From Cyanobacteria bacterium P01_A01_bin.123 (GTDB lineage Bacteria; Cyanobacteriota; Cyanobacteriia; Phormidesmidales; Phormidesmidaceae), in assembly GCA_039815185.1 (NCBI GenBank), contig JBCBZT010000033.1, positions 27,838 to 91,837 of the forward strand: DNA of 64,000 nucleotides. Reading direction: 5' to 3'. Shown piece after piece: positions 385 through 64,000 of the stretch (position 1 is its first letter; every line of letters begins with the position of its first letter). The position numbers and the translations under genes were made by a program. Under the pieces are notes generated by a model. The model was not told the DNA's origin. It saw nothing but the letters and a program-made list of their open reading frames with translations, and made no database searches.

Positions 385-3300
385 TTATGGATTAAATGGG
401 TAGTAAGCCTGACTTCGGACAATGCTGGATTCACCCAAATCAGTAGGCTGTATAGCATCCTCATCAGAACAGTCCCATTCAGCTTTTAATAGCCTTTCTA
501 CGCTAGAAACCGAGGGATCCCATTGGGTTGGTTGATTCGTCAAAGGCCGCGCAAGCAAAACAAGTGCCCTACCCAGAATAGGATCACCCGAACTATCGCC
601 ACGGACCCAGCCGTTTGCATCTTCTGGAAGATATGGATCAAAGCAGGGTGCATAGATTGCTTGTCCTGTGATTTTCCACCATCCGCTGGTTCCCACCCCC
701 TTATTCTGATTGTTGCTTCCTATGGGGAAAAAGTTAAAGTAGTCAAATTTATTGGGCGCAACAAAAGGTCCGCTACTCAACTCATAAACCGACCAAGCCT
801 CATAGTATCCTTCTTGGTTGCCACTGGCTTGTCTATGTGTTCCGCTGATATCGTGATAGTCGTATTCGTATATGACTTTTTGTATAATTGCCCCTTTATC
901 TGCGATGTTTCCTGTAACTCCAAATGTTCCAATGTCTCCTGCATTACCACAGTCATCTCTTGCTGTTGGCGCATGGTGATAACTCAGATTTAGGGTTACT
1001 CCTCCTCCTGATGGTTGCTTACAGCTATCATCTTCACGATCCGTGTCATCTTCTCTTCCACATGGATTCCGTTCCCCAGCCGTGGCAGCCGGATCGTCAG
1101 GAATGGCGGGAAGTGTGCCGCTTCCCCCCGTGGCCAGAGCGGGGCGAGACCGACGCCCCGCAGTTGGGGCCGGCACGGCTTGCTGGTCATTGGCGGCAGA
1201 AAAGAGCCAGCGTAAGAGACTTCTCGCATCAATGGCCGCGGCTTCCAGGGCGATCGGCGCAGTTTCTGGGGCGGCAGCGGCACCAGCGGCCGCATTCGCG
1301 GCATTCGTAGCGGCGGCACTGGCCGCATTGGCAGCAGCACTGGCACTACGGCTATCACTGCTCGTCAACGGGATTGAGAAGCCTCCCAGGTCTAGCTGCC
1401 AACAGTCGCCCCATTCTCTACGCAGTAGGTTCCAGCGCTCGCGGAAGAGGGTAAAGCGCCGGAAGAGCTGCACCATGAGCATAGCATCGAGGTCAAAGCT
1501 GAGATTGAGGCAGGGTTCGAGCACGGCCGTATTGTCGAGAACCAGCTCACCGTTAACGCACCCCACGGTCACTGTGTTGATGAGTTCGGCGTCTAGGACG
1601 CCGCGACCGGTGCCTTGTAGGCTACCTTCAACGCGGATGACTTCGAGGAGGCAGAGCCAATCAGCGGTTGCGCCAACCGTGCCCGTCAAGGTCAGTGAAC
1701 CCTGCAATCCTGCTTGGACATGCAATTCTGCCATCCCGGCATACACCCCGCTGAAGGGATCGACCGTCAGGCAGACATTGGCGAGCCACGCTGGCCCCAG
1801 GTCAGCGCCGACAGTGGCATTGAGCGACCCGCGAGCAAAGACGTTCAGCATGACGAAGCCCAAATAGGGAACTTCAATGGGCTGAGCATAGAGCCGAATG
1901 TTGCCGGTGGAGGTTCCGAAGCGATCGCTCACGGACTGCTGATCGAACAGGGGAATATCGGGCAGACAGAGTTGATAGGTTCTCGGGCTACTGAGTTCCT
2001 CGCTGTCATCGGGGCAGGGGCCAGTGCAGCCAGTCGGACTCGTGGAGCGATCGGCAAACAACATTGGTGTTGGATCATTGGGAGGCCCACCCCCGATCCA
2101 ACTCACTGCATTGGGGACACCGTGTCTACAAACGGCTTCAAAGTCGGCCCGTAAATGGCAAGGACCCCAGTCTTTTTCGTCTTTGGTCGCCGCACACCAG
2201 TCATAACCAGCATCGTGTCGGCGACAGCCTTCATGGGTAGGACAGACAGCGACGTCTTTGTAAATCCAGAATCGATGTTGTCCGCTGCCAATATCCTCAC
2301 AGACTGCGAGATCGCCAACTTGATCACACTTTGTACAATCTGGCCCACAGGCTCCACGACACTTTGAGCCCGATGCAATATCTGGGTCACGGGGATAGAT
2401 TTCCAGTGGTCCATCCAGGGATGGCTTGGGATGCCCAGTCCAATCTCCACCTTTTTGGGAAGGCATTAAGCCTAGCGAAAAGAAGGCATCGCAGAGCGGA
2501 CAATCGTCGCTGAACATTTCCCGCTGCAATTCCAGCGGCAGGGCATCAAACGGCACCACATTCAGGGCGGGCTCAGTCCAGCTAATGGCCGCACTAGCTC
2601 CGCGACTGCCGACATCAAGACTGACACTAAGGTTAGTAGAGACGGTGGCATCCCGGTGCCACTCCCAGAAGGGCCAGTATAGCGTACACAAACGTTGTCC
2701 CAGCAGGCTCAAGGCACCATACCCCGCCAATCCCAAATCGAGACCTAAGCCCAGATCTTCGTAGCGATTAGCGCGGAAGCTAAAGCCACTGAGGCCCGCC
2801 GATACCGACACCTCTAACGTGGTCGAAGAGGCCAGAATGCCGCGTCCAAATCCAGCTAAGCCCGCTTCGAGTCCGACCACGGGCACTTGAATCACCAGCG
2901 GCGGATCTGGCCATAGGATCAAGACACCGACTTCCCCATCGAGCCCGAGACGCAGTTCTCCACCGAGGCCGATGGCCGTCATCACCGTCATGCTGCCGCT
3001 GGCGCTCAAGCTCGCCGCGAACGGATCGATCACGATGCGGAGACCATTCAACGTACAAGGGCCGAGCTGTCCTGACAATTCGGGGATAATCCCAGCATGG
3101 AATCCCAAAGCCCCATACAGGGAGACGACCGAAGTCACGGGTAACACGCCCGCCAGGAAGGGAATGTCTCCCCCAATTTCGGGCAGGGTAAATTGAACCG
3201 GCAGGGTGGGACACACCGGCAAGGGCGGCACGTTGATGATCAGTCGGCTCCCTGAGAGGGTGACCACACCACCCAGAGCCGAGGCCAGATTAGTGGCGAC

Positions 3301-60996: not shown

Positions 60997-61524
60997 ATGC
61001 GAATACAACTAAGCAACCCAGAACCCTCAATATTCCGCCATTGGGTAGTGGTGTTTTCTAAAAACTATCTGCCCCTCACACGGATTTCGCTCAAGCGGGC
61101 GATCGCACTGCTGGTAACCGACCGGGCCGAATCACTGGAGTTGGGTGCGACTCAGTGCTGGGAAGTGCTATCGCCCAATCGGATACTACAGGTTTCAGAA
61201 CACATTCGCCTGACGGGTAACCACGGCGAACGGCAATGGAAAGTGCCCCCTGTCAGCCGCCGCGAAGTGTTTCGACGCGACCAGCACCAGTGTCAATACT
61301 GCGGCAGCAAAAAGCGACTCACGATTGACCACGTCATCCCCCGCTCCAAAGGGGGTACTCATACCTGGGACAACGTCGTGACGGCTTGCGATCGCTGCAA
61401 TTCATCAAAAGGCGATCGCTTGCTCCCGATGCGCAATTTAATGCTTATGGCCAAACCCAAGGCCCCGATGCATCCCGTCATGGCCTTTGCTGAGCAGTTT
61501 TGGATCGAACATCCCCCTGGCTAA
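60997..61524 (+). CDS. HNH endonuclease (type found next to cyanobacterial tRNA arrays)
   Basis: RREVFRRDQHQCQYCG...TIDHVIPRSKGG...WDNVVTACDRCNSSKG. Confidence 0.93.
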   Translation: MRIQLSNPEPSIFRHWVVVFSKNYLPLTRISLKRAIALLVTDRAESLELGATQCWEVLSPNRILQVSEHIRLTGNHGERQWKVPPVSRREVFRRDQHQCQYCGSKKRLTIDHVIPRSKGGTHTWDNVVTACDRCNSSKGDRLLPMRNLMLMAKPKAPMHPVMAFAEQFWIEHPPG

Positions 61525-62024: not shown

Positions 62025-62060
62025 TTGACAATTGTAGTATATATAATACAATTGTAGTAT
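62025..62060 (+). promoter_or_regulatory. tRNA-array promoter with two ACAATTGTAGTAT direct repeats (TrcR-like operator)
   Basis: TTGACA (62025)-16nt-TACAAT; repeats at 62028-62040 and 62048-62060. Confidence 0.8.
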
Positions 62061-62114: not shown

Positions 62115-62132
62115 GTGAATACTGCCACCTTT

Positions 62133-62208
62133 GGGGATGTAGCTTAGTCCGGCTCAAAGCAGTCGCCTGTCCAGCGAAAGATCGTGGGTTCAAATCCCAT
62201 CATCCCCG
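62133..62208 (+). tRNA. trnD: tRNA-Asp(GTC)
   Basis: GGGGATG/CATCCCC acceptor, loop CTGTCCA, G73. Confidence 0.85.
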
Positions 62209-62211
62209 TAT

Positions 62212-62404
62212 AGCGGTGTAGCTCAGGAGGTAGAGCGCCAGCAAACGTTGACTCGCTGGAGGATAGCCCCCCAGGTACCATCAGAACACGTAAGGGGCAG
62301 CCGGAACGCCGAATTTGCAGTGCACCTGACGTTGCAGTGATGACGTTGGGGAAGCGCGTTTTAAGGCACCGGATTACTCACGGGTTCAAGTCCCGTCACC
62401 GCTA
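62212..62404 (+). ncRNA. 193-nt tRNA-like RNA with a very large structured insertion
   Basis: AGCGGTG/CACCGCT acceptor, canonical D arm TAGCTCAGGAGGTAGAGC, T arm ACGGGTTCAAGTCCCGT; ~140 nt of hairpins between them. Confidence 0.75.
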
Positions 62405-62409
62405 TTGAT

Positions 62410-62486
62410 AGCCTCGTGGACGAGCAGATAAGTCGCTGTGATTCTCAGTCATAGAGAAGCGGGTGCAACTCCCGTCGGGGTTTCCA
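62410..62486 (+). tRNA. trnE: tRNA-Glu(CTC), atypical
   Basis: AGCCTCG/CGGGGTT acceptor, loop TTCTCAG, T-loop TGCAACT, encoded CCA. Confidence 0.7.
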
Positions 62487-62490
62487 CATT

Positions 62491-62564
62491 GAGGATGTAG
62501 CTCAGATGGAAAGAGCGCCTGTTTCCGAGGCAGGAAGCCACAGGTTCAAATCCTGTCATCCTCG
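62491..62564 (+). tRNA. trnR: tRNA-Arg(CCG)
   Basis: GAGGATG/CATCCTC, CCTGT-TTCCGAG-GCAGG. Confidence 0.78.
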
Positions 62565-62569
62565 TTCGT

Positions 62570-62652
62570 GGGGACGCAACTGGAGTTGACTGCTCCGAAA
62601 CCCACAAATGGACGGTTGCAGGACTGGGGTTCAATCCTCCACGTCTCCACCA
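62570..62652 (+). ncRNA. Mini-tmRNA-like RNA: tRNA-like domain only
   Basis: GGGGACG/CGTCTCC-A-CCA with G3.U70, stemless D-loop CAACTGGAGTTGAC, short P2-like hairpin, GGAC junction, T arm TGGGG-TTCAATC-CTCCA. Confidence 0.75.
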
Positions 62653-62655
62653 AAT

Positions 62656-62756
62656 CTCCAGGTAGCCAAGGGGAAAGGCGTCGGTCTGCAAAACCGACCA
62701 TCGTGGGTACTCTGCGAGAAGCCGCTTCGCGTCTACAATTCCCACCCTGGAGTCCA
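62656..62756 (+). tRNA. trnC: tRNA-Cys(GCA) interrupted in the T-loop by a ~27-nt small repeat (probable pseudogene)
   Basis: CTCCAGG/CCTGGAG-T-CCA, TCGGT-CTGCAAA-ACCGA; insertion ACTCTGCGAGAAGCCGCTTCGCGTCTA at ~62709-62735. Confidence 0.8.
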
Positions 62757-62757
62757 C

Positions 62758-62832
62758 TGCAGCGTAGCTTAACGGCAGAGCCGCGGCCTCATAAGCCGAC
62801 AGATGTGGGTTCAATTCCCACCGCTGCGACCA
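62758..62832 (+). tRNA. trnM: tRNA-Met(CAT) (Met/fMet/Ile2 not resolved)
   Basis: TGCAGCG/CGCTGCG-A-CCA, loop CTCATAA. Confidence 0.82.
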
Positions 62833-62835
62833 CCT

Positions 62836-62907
62836 GCACAGATGGTGTAACGGTTAGCACAAGGGCCTCCAAAGTCTTTTGTCCGGGTTCGAATCCTGGT
62901 CTGTGCG
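62836..62907 (+). tRNA. trnW: tRNA-Trp(CCA)
   Basis: GCACAGA/TCTGTGC-G, loop CTCCAAA. Confidence 0.85.
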
Positions 62908-62936
62908 TTTCTACGTCCGCGTCGTAGAAATTTCCT

Positions 62937-63013
62937 GGTGCCGTAGGCAAATCGGTAAAGCCGTCGATCTTTCAAGTCGATGTTTGCGGGTTCAACTCCC
63001 GTCGGCACTGCCA
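62937..63013 (+). tRNA. trnE: tRNA-Glu(TTC)
   Basis: GGTGCCG/CGGCACT-G-CCA, TCGAT-CTTTCAA-GTCGA. Confidence 0.85.
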
Positions 63014-63016
63014 ATT

Positions 63017-63099
63017 GGGTAGGTATGCAAATGGCTGAAGCAGGCTGCTTGTAAACCAGTCGTCCCTGACCACTGGGGGTTCGAGTCCCTCCCTACCCA
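63017..63099 (+). tRNA. trnY: tRNA-Tyr(GTA)
   Basis: GGGTAGG/CCTACCC-A, loop TTGTAAA, long variable arm; one C-C mismatch in the anticodon stem. Confidence 0.82.
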
Positions 63100-63113
63100 C
63101 TTGATCAAGTCTT

Positions 63114-63194
63114 GGAGAGTAAACCGATCAGGCGATTGGCGCTGTTTGCTAAACAGATGGATGAACAATTGTGGTTCGAGTCCACTGCTCTCCG
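63114..63194 (+). tRNA. trnS: tRNA-Ser(GCT), 8/4 fold with 6-bp D stem
   Basis: GGAGAGTA/TGCTCTCC-G, CCGATC/GATTGG D stem, loop TTGCTAA, GTGG/CCAC T stem. Confidence 0.8.
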
Positions 63195-63200
63195 CCTGAT

Positions 63201-63277
63201 GAGAACGTGGTGTAACTGGAAAACATCTCGGTCTACGAAACCGAAGATTGAAGGTTCAAGCCCTTCCGTTCTCGCCA
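63201..63277 (+). tRNA. trnR: tRNA-Arg(ACG)
   Basis: GAGAACG/CGTTCTC-G-CCA, TCGGT-CTACGAA-ACCGA. Confidence 0.88.
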
Positions 63278-63282
63278 TTGAT

Positions 63283-63368
63283 GGAGGATACCGCTGAATG
63301 GTCGGCAACTGGTCTTGAAAACCAGGGTAGTTCTTGGGCTAGGGGTTCGATTCCTCTATCCTCCGCCA
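63283..63368 (+). tRNA. trnS: tRNA-Ser(TGA)
   Basis: GGAGGAT/ATCCTCC-G-CCA, CTGGT-CTTGAAA-ACCAG, variable arm. Confidence 0.85.
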
Positions 63369-63371
63369 AAT

Positions 63372-63468
63372 GGGAAGTTGGTGAAGCTGGTGCTCACGTG
63401 CCTTTGTTGGCGCTGCCTGTCCGAAGGACATAGCAGGTGAGAAGACGGTTCGATTCCGTCACTTCCCA
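63372..63468 (+). pseudogene. Pseudo-tRNA with a small repeat inserted in the anticodon loop (possibly Phe-derived)
   Basis: GGGAAGT/ACTTCCC-A, intact D and T arms; anticodon region contains TTGGCGCTGCCTGTCCGAAGGACA. Confidence 0.72.
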
Positions 63469-63473
63469 TACGT

Positions 63474-63548
63474 TGCCCCATAGCTCAATGGTGGAGCTGG
63501 CGGCTGTTAACCGCACGGTTGTAGGTTCGAATCCTACTGGGGCAGCCA
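63474..63548 (+). tRNA. trnN: tRNA-Asn(GTT)
   Basis: TGCCCCA/TGGGGCA-G-CCA, loop CTGTTAA. Confidence 0.88.
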
Positions 63549-63553
63549 TTCAT

Positions 63554-63630
63554 TGCCGAGTGGACAACCTGGAAAGTCGCTGTGACTCTGAATCACGGAG
63601 ATGCTGGTTCAATTCCAGCCTCGGCATCCA
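63554..63630 (+). tRNA. trnQ: tRNA-Gln(CTG)
   Basis: TGCCGAG/CTCGGCA-T-CCA, loop CTCTGAA. Confidence 0.85.
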
Positions 63631-63637
63631 TCTTTAT

Positions 63638-63711
63638 TGGGAAGTACGCAAATCGGGAAAGCGACCTGACTTTGAATCAGGTGTTTGAGGGTTCGATTCC
63701 TTCCTTCCCAG
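63638..63711 (+). tRNA. trnQ: tRNA-Gln(TTG)
   Basis: TGGGAAG/CTTCCCA-G, CCTGA-CTTTGAA-TCAGG. Confidence 0.87.
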
Positions 63712-63763
63712 TCGGGGGCGTGGGTGTTGCTTATTGGAGCAATCGCCCTATCCTCCTGTTCAT

Positions 63764-63841
63764 ACTCCTGTAGCCCAACTGGCAGAGGCGACTATTTCAA
63801 ACACAGTTCACGTGTGGGTTCAACTCCCACCAGGAGTACCA
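63764..63841 (+). tRNA. trnL: tRNA-Leu(CAA), short variable arm
   Basis: ACTCCTG/CAGGAGT-A-CCA, loop TTCAAAC. Confidence 0.78.
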
Positions 63842-63846
63842 AGCAA

Positions 63847-63921
63847 ACTCCTGTAGCCCAACTGGCAGAGGCGGCTGTCTTAGAAACAGTCCATGTGTGG
63901 GTTCGACTCCCACCAGGAGTA
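63847..63921 (+). tRNA. trnL: tRNA-Leu(TAG), short variable arm
   Basis: ACTCCTG/CAGGAGT-A, GCTGT-CTTAGAA-ACAGT. Confidence 0.82.
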
Positions 63922-63926
63922 CTTAT

Positions 63927-63999
63927 CGGGATGTAAGTCAGTGGTCAGACGGCTTGTTTTGGGGACAAGCAGCCGTAGGTTCGAATCCTACCATCCCGA
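63927..63999 (+). tRNA. trnP: tRNA-Pro(TGG)
   Basis: CGGGATG/CATCCCG-A, CTTGT-TTTGGGG-ACAAG. Confidence 0.88.
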
Positions 64000-64000
64000 C

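Follow-up and report, generated by a model that had tools for sequence, protein, structure and literature searches.

The 64,000-nucleotide stretch of DNA analysed here (the window), from contig JBCBZT010000033.1 of Cyanobacteria bacterium P01_A01_bin.123, carries at positions 62212-62404 a 193-nt gene for a tRNA-like RNA derived from tRNA-Arg. We find that this element belongs to a new, widely distributed family of tRNA-Arg-derived tRNA mimics, which share an invariant structured module. The observation of a structured RNA gene at 62212-62404 is real, and its conservation is confirmed. A first-pass annotation of the window, made from the sequence alone, had proposed an unnamed structured noncoding RNA built on a tRNA-like frame, and this description has held up: the element is conserved, covarying, single-copy and without an Rfam family.

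A tRNA Frame Carrying a Structured Module

A structure-only frame finder and a covariance model (R1, described below) both returned the same ends for the element, 62212-62404 on the plus strand, on which all its parts lie. The R1 match covers model positions 1-153 and scores 57.3 bits (E 1.6e-11). The acceptor stem pairs AGCGGTG with CACCGCT; its 5' strand occupies 62212-62218, and its 3' portion, 62397-62404, consists of the partner strand (62397-62403) and a discriminator A at 62404. CCA is not encoded. The D arm, GCTC-AGGAGGTA-GAGC, lies at 62221-62236 and the T arm, ACGGG-TTCAAGT-CCCGT, at 62380-62396. As originally claimed, these three arms of the tRNA-like frame are intact, both when read in the sequence and in the minimum-free-energy structure that RNAfold predicts for the window copy, in which the cloverleaf frame is kept. 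The arm at the anticodon position, 62238-62259, is formed by CCAGC, a 12-nt loop and GCTGG. In the window copy the loop reads AAACGTTGACTC, with ACG at 62245-62247 and no U33-type U ahead of it.

Between this arm and the T arm, in place of a variable loop, lie about 115 nt of extra sequence. The first structure in it is a lineage-specific hairpin, GCCCC...GGGGC with a variable loop (62266-62298), which shows a CG to UA change in one relative, becomes CCCCG/CGGGG in a distant cyanobacterial copy and is missing from the short phage-type members of the family. It is followed by P1, the outer stem of the module, whose 5' strand (62301-62310) pairs with its 3' strand (62365-62372). Two conserved core blocks lie between the strands of P1: a 5' block, TTGCAG-TGCACC, at 62315-62326, which consists of invariant columns in our alignment A2, and a 3' block, GGGAAGCGCGTT, at 62349-62360, which is invariant in all 23 sequences of that alignment. 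The blocks are separated by P3, a variable central hairpin at 62327-62348.

The same layout recurs throughout the family. Members have acceptor, D and T arms, an anticodon-type arm with a covarying stem of 4-5 bp, an optional hairpin, and P1. The module contains the invariant blocks TTGCRG(N0-2)GCACC and GGGAAGCGCGTT, with 23 invariant bases, and between them P3 varies from 20 to more than 100 nt, as a central hairpin or a branched domain; an extra 3' hairpin is sometimes present. The module is more conserved than the tRNA frame.

Three of the stems initially reported, CCAGC-(12 nt)-GCTGG, GCCCC/GGGGC and CCGG..GCC/GGC.CCGG, are present, and all three covary in relatives. The fourth, TGCAGTG/CGTTGCA, has to be abandoned: it offers only four complementary bases, and relatives do not conserve the hairpin predicted there by RNAfold in the window copy. 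The folding energy of the element is unremarkable (z-score -1.30; 21 of 200 shuffled sequences fold equally well).

Covariation of the Frame and the Module

The covariance model R1 was built from 10 short phage-type members with a hand-drawn structure, and the window sequence was left out of it. R1 gave a full-frame match in all 46 sources searched, one match being cut by a contig end. Ordinary tRNAs score at most 38 bits under the model, a range into which a few damaged or truncated members also fall.

A test of covariation had been proposed together with the element, and its outcome was strong covariation. The analysis used a model-guided alignment of 38 distinct members; because this alignment was fitted to R1, the figures lean towards the model. 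Of its cells, 95.7% are paired, against 71.8% in shuffles, and 32 of the 38 modelled pairs vary on both sides. The covariation score is 0.542, compared with 0.160 in shuffles; none of 500 shuffles reached the observed value, and controls in which the pairing partners were slid gave scores of 0.06-0.11. Helices 1, 2 and 9, which are the acceptor, D and T arms, are 98-100% paired and covary. All 7 acceptor pairs vary on both sides; the D arm has 98% of its cells paired, and the T arm is 100% paired with covariation in 4 of its 5 pairs. Variation on both sides is likewise found in all 5 pairs of the anticodon-position stem (helix 3) and in all 6 pairs of P1 (helix 4, 94.5% paired), and P3 (helix 8) covaries. 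Four pairs in the core blocks are invariant in all 38 members. Duplex predictions made without R1 produced the same outer stem, P1, with many differing sequences.

Distribution from Cyanobacteria to Streptomyces Phages

Conservation was one of the points on which the first-pass annotation had staked its proposal, and it had pointed to other tRNA arrays and to phages as places to look. Homologues were found in both, and they occur in related genomes, metagenomes and phages. Full-length copies with 86-88% identity are present in 6 of 172 other genomes of the same taxonomic family. These genomes are named Leptolyngbya, Nodosilinea and Halomicronema, and the copy always lies between tRNA-Asp and tRNA-Glu(CTC). 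When 400 other genomes were sampled across the phylum, one further copy, cut by a contig end, was found in another cyanobacterial family; in this distant copy, compensatory changes are found in three stems, those of the anticodon-type arm, the first hairpin and P1.

A pattern search based on the two core blocks recovered 9 loci on metagenome contigs and one on a viral contig, and a phage-type pattern added 23 viral loci, giving 24 IMG/VR contigs. In isolate phages, blastn found 27 records, all from Streptomyces phages, in which the locus is either blank or called as small hypothetical coding sequences (CDSs); the family closes this annotation gap. No homologue anywhere is annotated as an RNA, and every homologue sits inside a tRNA frame. 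The genes lie among tRNA genes, in horizontally spread arrays of cyanobacteria and large phages. The phages LuckySocke, GiJojo and Alone3 have the order tRNA-Asp(gtc), element, tRNA-Glu(ctc), tRNA-Glu(ttc), and the succession Asp, element, Glu(CTC) is common to cyanobacterial arrays and three Streptomyces phages.

The plasmid collection contained no match to the element, and blastn of isolate phages with two divergent viral members as queries gave none either. A 19-mer matched 13 genome contigs. Six of these matches, in Bacillus, Noviherbaspirillum, Gammaproteobacteria, Methanoregulaceae, Lewinellaceae and Bacteroidota, were set aside as presumed chance matches, given the very large size of the collection, and were not given to R1.

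A literature search found no description of the RNA. The family may be among the 10,006 candidate RNAs of viruses that were catalogued in 2023 (PMC10690425); six IMG/VR sample numbers were absent from four of its supplementary files (three spreadsheets and a Word file), the zipped alignments lying outside this search.

Two observations concern other sequences on contigs that hold family members. Between tRNA-Asp and the element of LuckySocke (L052 in our numbering of loci, about 2280-2440), GiJojo (L055) and Alone3 (L058) lie about 90 conserved nt, part of them annotated as a small hypothetical CDS, that look like a further structured RNA. On metagenome contig L043, two tRNA matches of 140-143 nt (1356-1495 and 1636-1778, minus strand; Rfam tRNA, 61.7 and 39.5 bits) carry inserts of about 70 nt.

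Known RNA Families and the Fate of the Module

ARAGORN called no tRNA or tmRNA at the element, though it called 16 tRNA genes within 62132-64000. An Infernal comparison with Rfam, which had been suggested as a check, was run on Rfam 15. It produced no match naming the element, whether at gathering thresholds or at E values up to 10, and the only overlap was a 25-bit partial match to YrlA that spans the junction between tRNA-Asp and the element. The Rfam tRNA model found no match on the window copy at E up to 10, and it scored three relatives, at 37.8-38.9 bits, only with the module treated as an insertion. No reading frame is conserved between the window copy and its close relatives, as judged by inspection of the alignment. 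A tmRNA identity can be excluded by the lack of an ARAGORN tmRNA call, by C3-G70 in the window copy, where the tRNA-Ala-like domain of tmRNA has G3:U70, and by the presence of an anticodon-type arm. A group I intron is excluded in turn by the lack of an Intron_gpI match at E up to 10; the insert of about 115 nt sits after the anticodon-type arm, not inside its loop.

No Rfam riboswitch or ribozyme family matches the element at E up to 10. This bears on one alternative, that the element is a tRNA scaffold for an aptamer or ribozyme, a ligand-sensing or catalytic domain whose state would gate recognition of the tRNA part or whose cleaved ends would feed RtcB. The helix that holds the 23 invariant nucleotides is rich in internal loops and has covarying stems on either side, an arrangement familiar from the cores of riboswitches and ribozymes, and the linkage to RtcB and some individual loop-module pairings of 7-8 bp (both described below) would also suit such a domain. 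Set against these are the null result in Rfam, the fact that no cleavage site or ligand can be named, and loop-module pairing that is not significant. An aptamer or ribozyme is, in our view, very unlikely.

The RNA libraries of relatives speak to whether the module is removed. Metatranscriptome contigs with at least 85% match, from 4 runs in 3 studies, run straight through the module, and none of them contains a joint removing the insert alone. Splicing to give a normal tRNA, named at the outset as an outcome that would overturn the proposal, has therefore left no sign in these contigs. The run search matched only small shares, at most 0.10 of the sampled words. Because the sequences are assembled contigs of relatives and may include DNA, they show presence, not expression. 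The single joint seen, from 62218 to 62393 with six foreign letters between, skips nearly the whole element; it is best read as an array without the element, not as splicing. One RNA-library contig ends in adapter sequence 3 nt before the 3' end of the element and was not counted as evidence.

These data also address the alternative that the locus is an interrupted tRNA gene, split by an intron or a mobile insertion and rejoined by, for example, cleavage and RtcB ligation, or else a decaying pseudogene. RtcB, which is linked to the arrays, does serve outside the bacteria as a tRNA-splicing ligase, and small insertions do hit array tRNAs, as in the T loops of members L037, L041 and L042 and of a neighbouring tRNA-Cys. 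But removal of the module would leave a loop of 8-13 nt without U33, so that a normal anticodon loop is not restored. The module is single-copy in its genome and in the 46 sources is never found outside the frame, its conservation exceeds that of the frame, and its covariation extends from cyanobacteria to Streptomyces phages. The insert is kept in the RNA-library contigs, and there is no group I intron match. A known mobile repeat had been considered from the beginning; BLAST and the covariance model both find the element once in its own genome, with no dispersed copies. All this makes an interrupted or decaying tRNA gene extremely unlikely.

Relationship to tRNA-Arg

Phage and metagenome members have an A-rich loop at the anticodon position, with ACGGA at its end. 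In the phage elements AAA precedes ACGGA; the tRNA-Arg(ACG) genes that these phages carry have CU or UU there, and the acceptor stems of the elements and of these genes are also alike. Since the phage loop matches the tRNA-Arg(ACG) loop of the same phages, we conclude that the family descends from tRNA-Arg(ACG). Both this ancestry and the distribution in phages had escaped the first-pass annotation. At least 33 of 38 members retain ACG; a single one has GCG, still an Arg anticodon, and two are without the C or G of ACG. Of the top five ordinary tRNAs under R1, those ranked first, second, fourth and fifth are tRNA-Arg. In the seven loci with a clean frame and an Arg gene, tRNA-Arg was the nearest same-locus tRNA six times; overall it was nearest in only 9 of 37 comparisons, a noisy set, since many of the frames extracted from the model alignment had retained insert columns. 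tRNA-Arg is also the immediate tRNA neighbour of the element in 8 lineages (Kela-type, Quantum-type, L059, L060, L068, L070, L075 and L076).

The loops of the family are 8-13 nt long, with A's ahead of ACG and U33 lost. A loop of this length with no U before the anticodon should be unable to decode, and on this criterion the element is not a decoding tRNA.

Arginyl-tRNA synthetase (ArgRS) identifies its substrates by C35, G36, A20 and A or G at position 73. It is conceivable that ArgRS arginylates the element through these positions, and that the resulting Arg-RNA is used outside normal decoding, as an arginine donor, a charging sensor or a recoding tRNA with an expanded loop. The retention of ACG, with the GCG variant still specifying Arg, fits a chargeable tRNA-Arg variant, as do A20 in 20 of 38 members and A or G73 in 37 of 38 (A in 34, G in 3, T in 1). 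Freely varying acceptor stems would suit a synthetase that reads the anticodon, and CCA is encoded in some members. Position 20 is C in 7 of 38 and T in 10 of 38, the latter comprising the cyanobacterial lineage, including the window copy, and one viral copy; the T20 of the cyanobacterial members speaks against charging. The 8-13-nt loops without U33 and the loss of C or G from ACG in two members also argue against charging and use, and a domain of about 100 nt at the variable position may not fit the ribosome. No arginyl-transferase-type gene was found among 112 open reading frames (ORFs) at viral loci or among the other ORFs scanned near the element. We consider a chargeable variant quite unlikely.

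RNA-Repair Genes near the Element

Genes for RNA repair and RNA quality control are frequently linked to the element. RtcB follows it at a distance of about 6 kb in all three related genomes checked, encoded on the same strand; in one of the three, NADAR and DUF6847 genes separate the array from RtcB. One metagenome contig has HNH, element, tRNA-Met and RtcB in that order. In phages, RtcB was found in only 1 of 5 checked. A Pfam scan of the ORFs around 17 viral loci (112 neighbouring ORFs) identified Ro60 (vWA_Ro60 and TROVE), PTH2 and HNH among the neighbours. A T4-type RNA ligase and a kinase-like AAA_33 domain are near the element in viral loci L064 and L066, and HAD_SAK_1, the HAD domain of "Swiss Army Knife" RNA-repair proteins, is also found near it in viral loci.

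Of 15 phage records that bear the element, 9 contain TROVE; among those that are complete or at least 90% complete, the proportion is 7 of 10. A Ro60 homologue occurs in 356 of 50,697 phage records overall (0.7%), and neighbourhood counts of this kind are confounded by lineage sharing and by the general gene content of tRNA-rich phages. In four of the 15 phage records (L059, L061, L072 and L075) the Ro60 ORF is downstream of the element on the same strand; these positions come from the contig coordinates of TROVE matches, ORF ends not having been measured in L059, L061 and L075. In L072 the called range of the Ro60 ORF overlaps the 3' end of the element. Three of these four contigs have a YrlA-like RNA upstream, and in all, 5 of 21 loci scanned have one within 3 kb of the element. 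These YrlA-like matches beside the element are full-length, with scores of 38-59 bits (E 2e-5 to 7e-11) against an Rfam gathering score of 69. In phage Jay2Jay (L086), which has the order Asp, Asp, Ro60, Glu(ctc), Glu(ttc), Ro60 occupies the interval that elsewhere holds the element.

This neighbourhood raises the alternative of a Y-RNA-like adaptor, whose tRNA half would recruit tRNA-handling enzymes and whose module would dock Ro60 in phages and RtcB or another protein in cyanobacteria, resembling the way in which YrlA tethers Ro60 to effectors. The four viral contigs with Ro60 downstream on the same strand, three of them with a YrlA-like RNA upstream, argue for an adaptor, together with the frequency of TROVE in element-bearing records compared with 0.7% of all phage records, the position of Ro60 in the Asp...Glu(CTC) interval of Jay2Jay, and RtcB after the cyanobacterial arrays. 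It is also in keeping with PMC4201824, according to which bacterial Y RNAs contain tRNA-like domains and further types are to be expected. The structure of the element is less favourable. Its ends form an acceptor stem, not a terminal Ro60-binding helix; the terminal helix of YrlA is not seen in the module, and the Rfam YrlA model gave only the 25-bit partial match across the gene junction. TROVE is absent from all five cyanobacteria checked (the window genome and four others), though their core blocks are identical to those of phages, and the element is absent from all five further Ro60-encoding phages (Bxz1, Jay2Jay, Atu_ph07, Sixama and Pumpernickel), in which the best matches are at the level of tRNAs, at most 38.7 bits. 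On these two counts we reject Ro60 as an obligate partner. An adaptor of this type is fairly unlikely.

The YrlA-like matches are observations in their own right. Inside phage tRNA clusters they lie at 3248-3386 of L072 (minus strand), 1112-1242 of L073 (plus), 2431-2540 of L061 (plus), 4278-4397 of L059 (minus), 1461-1577 of L039 (minus) and 5380-5478 of L088 (plus). These sub-threshold matches probably represent divergent Y RNAs overlooked at the curated threshold. Gordonia phage Sixama (L088) has the series Ro60, Asn, tmRNA, Arg(acg), Gln, YrlA-like; in Sixama and Jay2Jay, Ro60 is thus found within a tRNA cluster or at its edge. In the record behind locus L078 (G572 contig 1, 48997-51030, minus strand), the phage RtcB match falls in two pieces within a single 761-aa frame, which suggests an intein or other insertion in the ligase gene.

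A Proposed Role in tRNA Damage and Repair

The reading that we prefer is that the element is a non-decoding tRNA-Arg mimic, processed as tRNAs are, with a role in trans in tRNA damage and repair. The part of this that concerns identity and processing is very probable. The statement as a whole is tentative, quite possible but short of probable, and a decoy or competitor mechanism in particular, although possible, is on balance doubtful. The initial suggestion of a decoy for ribotoxins or a scaffold for repair factors would fit a neighbourhood of RtcB, Ro60, YrlA-like RNA and RNA ligase.

In outline, the element would be transcribed with the array from a stress-inducible promoter. RNase P and RNase Z, and/or exonucleases, would free it by way of its acceptor/T-arm frame, with the module retained; we infer excision by RNase P and RNase Z from the intact acceptor/T frame and the tRNA-like spacing in the array. 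The freed RNA would then work in trans as a look-alike of tRNA-Arg that is bound rather than used, and candidates for the factor that binds it are an anticodon-directed nuclease, ArgRS, TadA and a repair enzyme. The invariant module may clamp or present the Arg-type loop and offer a surface for protein binding. The net effect would be to protect or restore the tRNA pool under translational stress or in phage-host conflict.

Several observations weigh against this proposal. Cyanobacterial copies are without A20 and have only ACG in common with the loop of their own tRNA-Arg(ACG), CTACGAA. The RtcB gene of the window assembly is on contig 14, with no array beside it, and the array runs off its own contig. 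The absence of TROVE from the five cyanobacteria, and of the element from the five further Ro60-encoding phages, counts here as well, and the association with repair genes may simply follow from a common ancestry of the arrays and from these phages being large and rich in tRNA genes. For a simple decoy, about 100 nt with 23 invariant bases would be more than is required. The RNA-library data are assembled contigs of relatives, which give neither read ends nor an expression level. Finally, anchored pairing between ACG in the loop and CGT in the module has a mean of 5.08 against 4.98, and 892 of 5000 permutations are as high.

An unanchored longest-helix test of loop against module was uninformative, with a mean of 5.8 for self and 6.0 for cross comparisons. 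Individual pairings of 7-8 bp do occur, in L065, L068, L076, L081 and the distant cyanobacterial copy. A loop-to-module pseudoknot, in which ACG and its flanks would pair with CGT and flanks after the 3' core block, is without statistical support and we retain it only as an idea. Built on that idea is the further possibility of a tRNA-scaffolded riboregulator: a codon-like CGT strand in the invariant block would pair with the RNA's own ACG loop, and the module would switch the RNA between two states. With its anticodon free, the RNA could be read or charged by ArgRS or cut by an Arg-specific nuclease; in the other state it would be codon-bound. It would in this way sense damage to tRNA-Arg or arginine charging. 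We think such a riboregulator improbable. If true, it would mean a trans-acting, tRNA-shaped sensor common to phages and cyanobacterial stress operons that signals to Ro60/RtcB repair.

In conflicts over the integrity of tRNAs, phage tRNA clusters and bacterial arrays of spare tRNAs are now seen as means of attack and defence. That such clusters contain a further conserved RNA, found in cyanobacterial operons and in Streptomyces and other large phages, points to an unrecognised player in tRNA damage, repair or quality control, and the family sits in arrays related to one that responds to translation inhibitors. It is also open to experiment, with members of about 150-230 nt that are easily transcribed and that occur in culturable SEA-PHAGES isolates.

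The Surrounding tRNA Array

The element is a component of an L-array-type operon. An HNH endonuclease gene (60997-61524, plus strand; Pfam HNH, E 2.3e-17) lies upstream of the array, and a repeat search identified a promoter-like region at 62028-62060 (plus strand) with two exact 13-nt direct repeats, at 62028-62040 and 62048-62060. The array then runs on one strand in the order tRNA-Asp(GTC), element, tRNA-Glu(CTC), tRNA-Arg(CCG) and onward. tRNA-Asp(GTC), the first array gene and 5' neighbour of the element, occupies 62132-62209 (plus strand; ARAGORN; Rfam tRNA, 61 bits), and tRNA-Glu(CTC), its 3' neighbour, occupies 62410-62486 (plus strand; ARAGORN). The window contig stops within the array; related arrays have 15-24 called tRNAs each.

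The published text of PMC8421152 describes an HNH gene upstream of the cyanobacterial L-array, or trn operon, of Anabaena PCC 7120. It also reports that direct repeats over the -10 box, with a 9-nt repeat consensus, regulate L-arrays, that translation inhibitors induce the Anabaena PCC 7120 trn operon, and that this operon is co-regulated with rtcB. With its upstream HNH gene and promoter direct repeats, the window array matches the published description. The 13-nt repeats at 62028-62060 are partly palindromic and lie over the likely promoter of the array; by analogy, they are probably the type of operator known for L-arrays.

Other genes of the array have features of their own. An 83-nt mini tmRNA-like gene at 62570-62652 (plus strand) has an acceptor with G3:U70, a T arm and an encoded ACCA, with nothing between. 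It matches the Rfam tmRNA model at 43.8 bits over positions 1-374, the gathering score being 47, and all five related genomes checked have it at the corresponding array position, with 84-95% identity. A tRNA-Cys(GCA)-like gene at 62656-62757 (plus strand) has its T loop split by an insert of about 30 nt; it has no ARAGORN call and only a 22.4-bit partial match to Rfam tRNA, and BLAST finds no second copy of the insert in the genome. T-loop inserts of similar size, with a common short motif, split the element itself in metagenome copies L037, L041 and L042. A tRNA-like stretch with a long extra arm lies at 63372-63467 (plus strand), between tRNA-Ser(TGA) and tRNA-Asn; it too is without an ARAGORN call and matches Rfam tRNA-Sec at 25.4 bits (E 0.035).

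Comparison with Known Systems

The element can be set beside four known systems. With the L-array described in PMC8421152, the window locus has the upstream HNH gene, the promoter repeats and, in relatives, the RtcB linkage in common, and here the element is a fixed second gene. The term 'tRNA-like' is absent from the text of that paper; only 7 of 173 genomes of the taxonomic family, including that of the window, hold the element.

With tRNA-Arg(ACG) the element shares its cloverleaf frame, the ACG(GA) segment of the loop, frequent A20, an A or G discriminator and adjacency in the genome. It differs in having a structured module of 70-190 nt where tRNA-Arg(ACG) has a variable loop of 5 nt, and in its loop of 8-13 nt without U33.

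The T4 RNAs rnaC and rnaD (species 1 and 2) are small stable RNAs that lie in a phage tRNA cluster directly after tRNA-Arg and are released by tRNA-processing enzymes; neither carries a function in its record. The T arm and acceptor-like 3' part of rnaC are found in the element too, but the T4 RNAs, unlike the element, have no full cloverleaf with a module in the variable region. Homology can be rejected: rnaC scores 14.6 bits under R1, rnaD has no match, and neither contains the invariant blocks. As stable RNAs riding a phage tRNA cluster, they are nevertheless the closest functional analogy to the element.

YrlA (RF02553) resembles the element in its mimicry of the D and T arms. Like the element it has Ro60 and RtcB-type repair genes in its vicinity and occurs in the tRNA regions of actinophages, and Chen et al. 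(2014; PMC4201824) describe it as a substrate of tRNA enzymes. The two RNAs are put together differently. The two termini of YrlA pair into the Ro60-binding helix, which takes the place of the anticodon stem, and its acceptor is a closed hairpin; the consensus terminal helix of YrlA is not visible in the module of the element. The element closes its ends into a 7-bp acceptor stem, retains an anticodon-type arm and carries its extra domain in the variable region. The family thus represents a third architecture of tRNA mimicry, beside those of YrlA and tmRNA.

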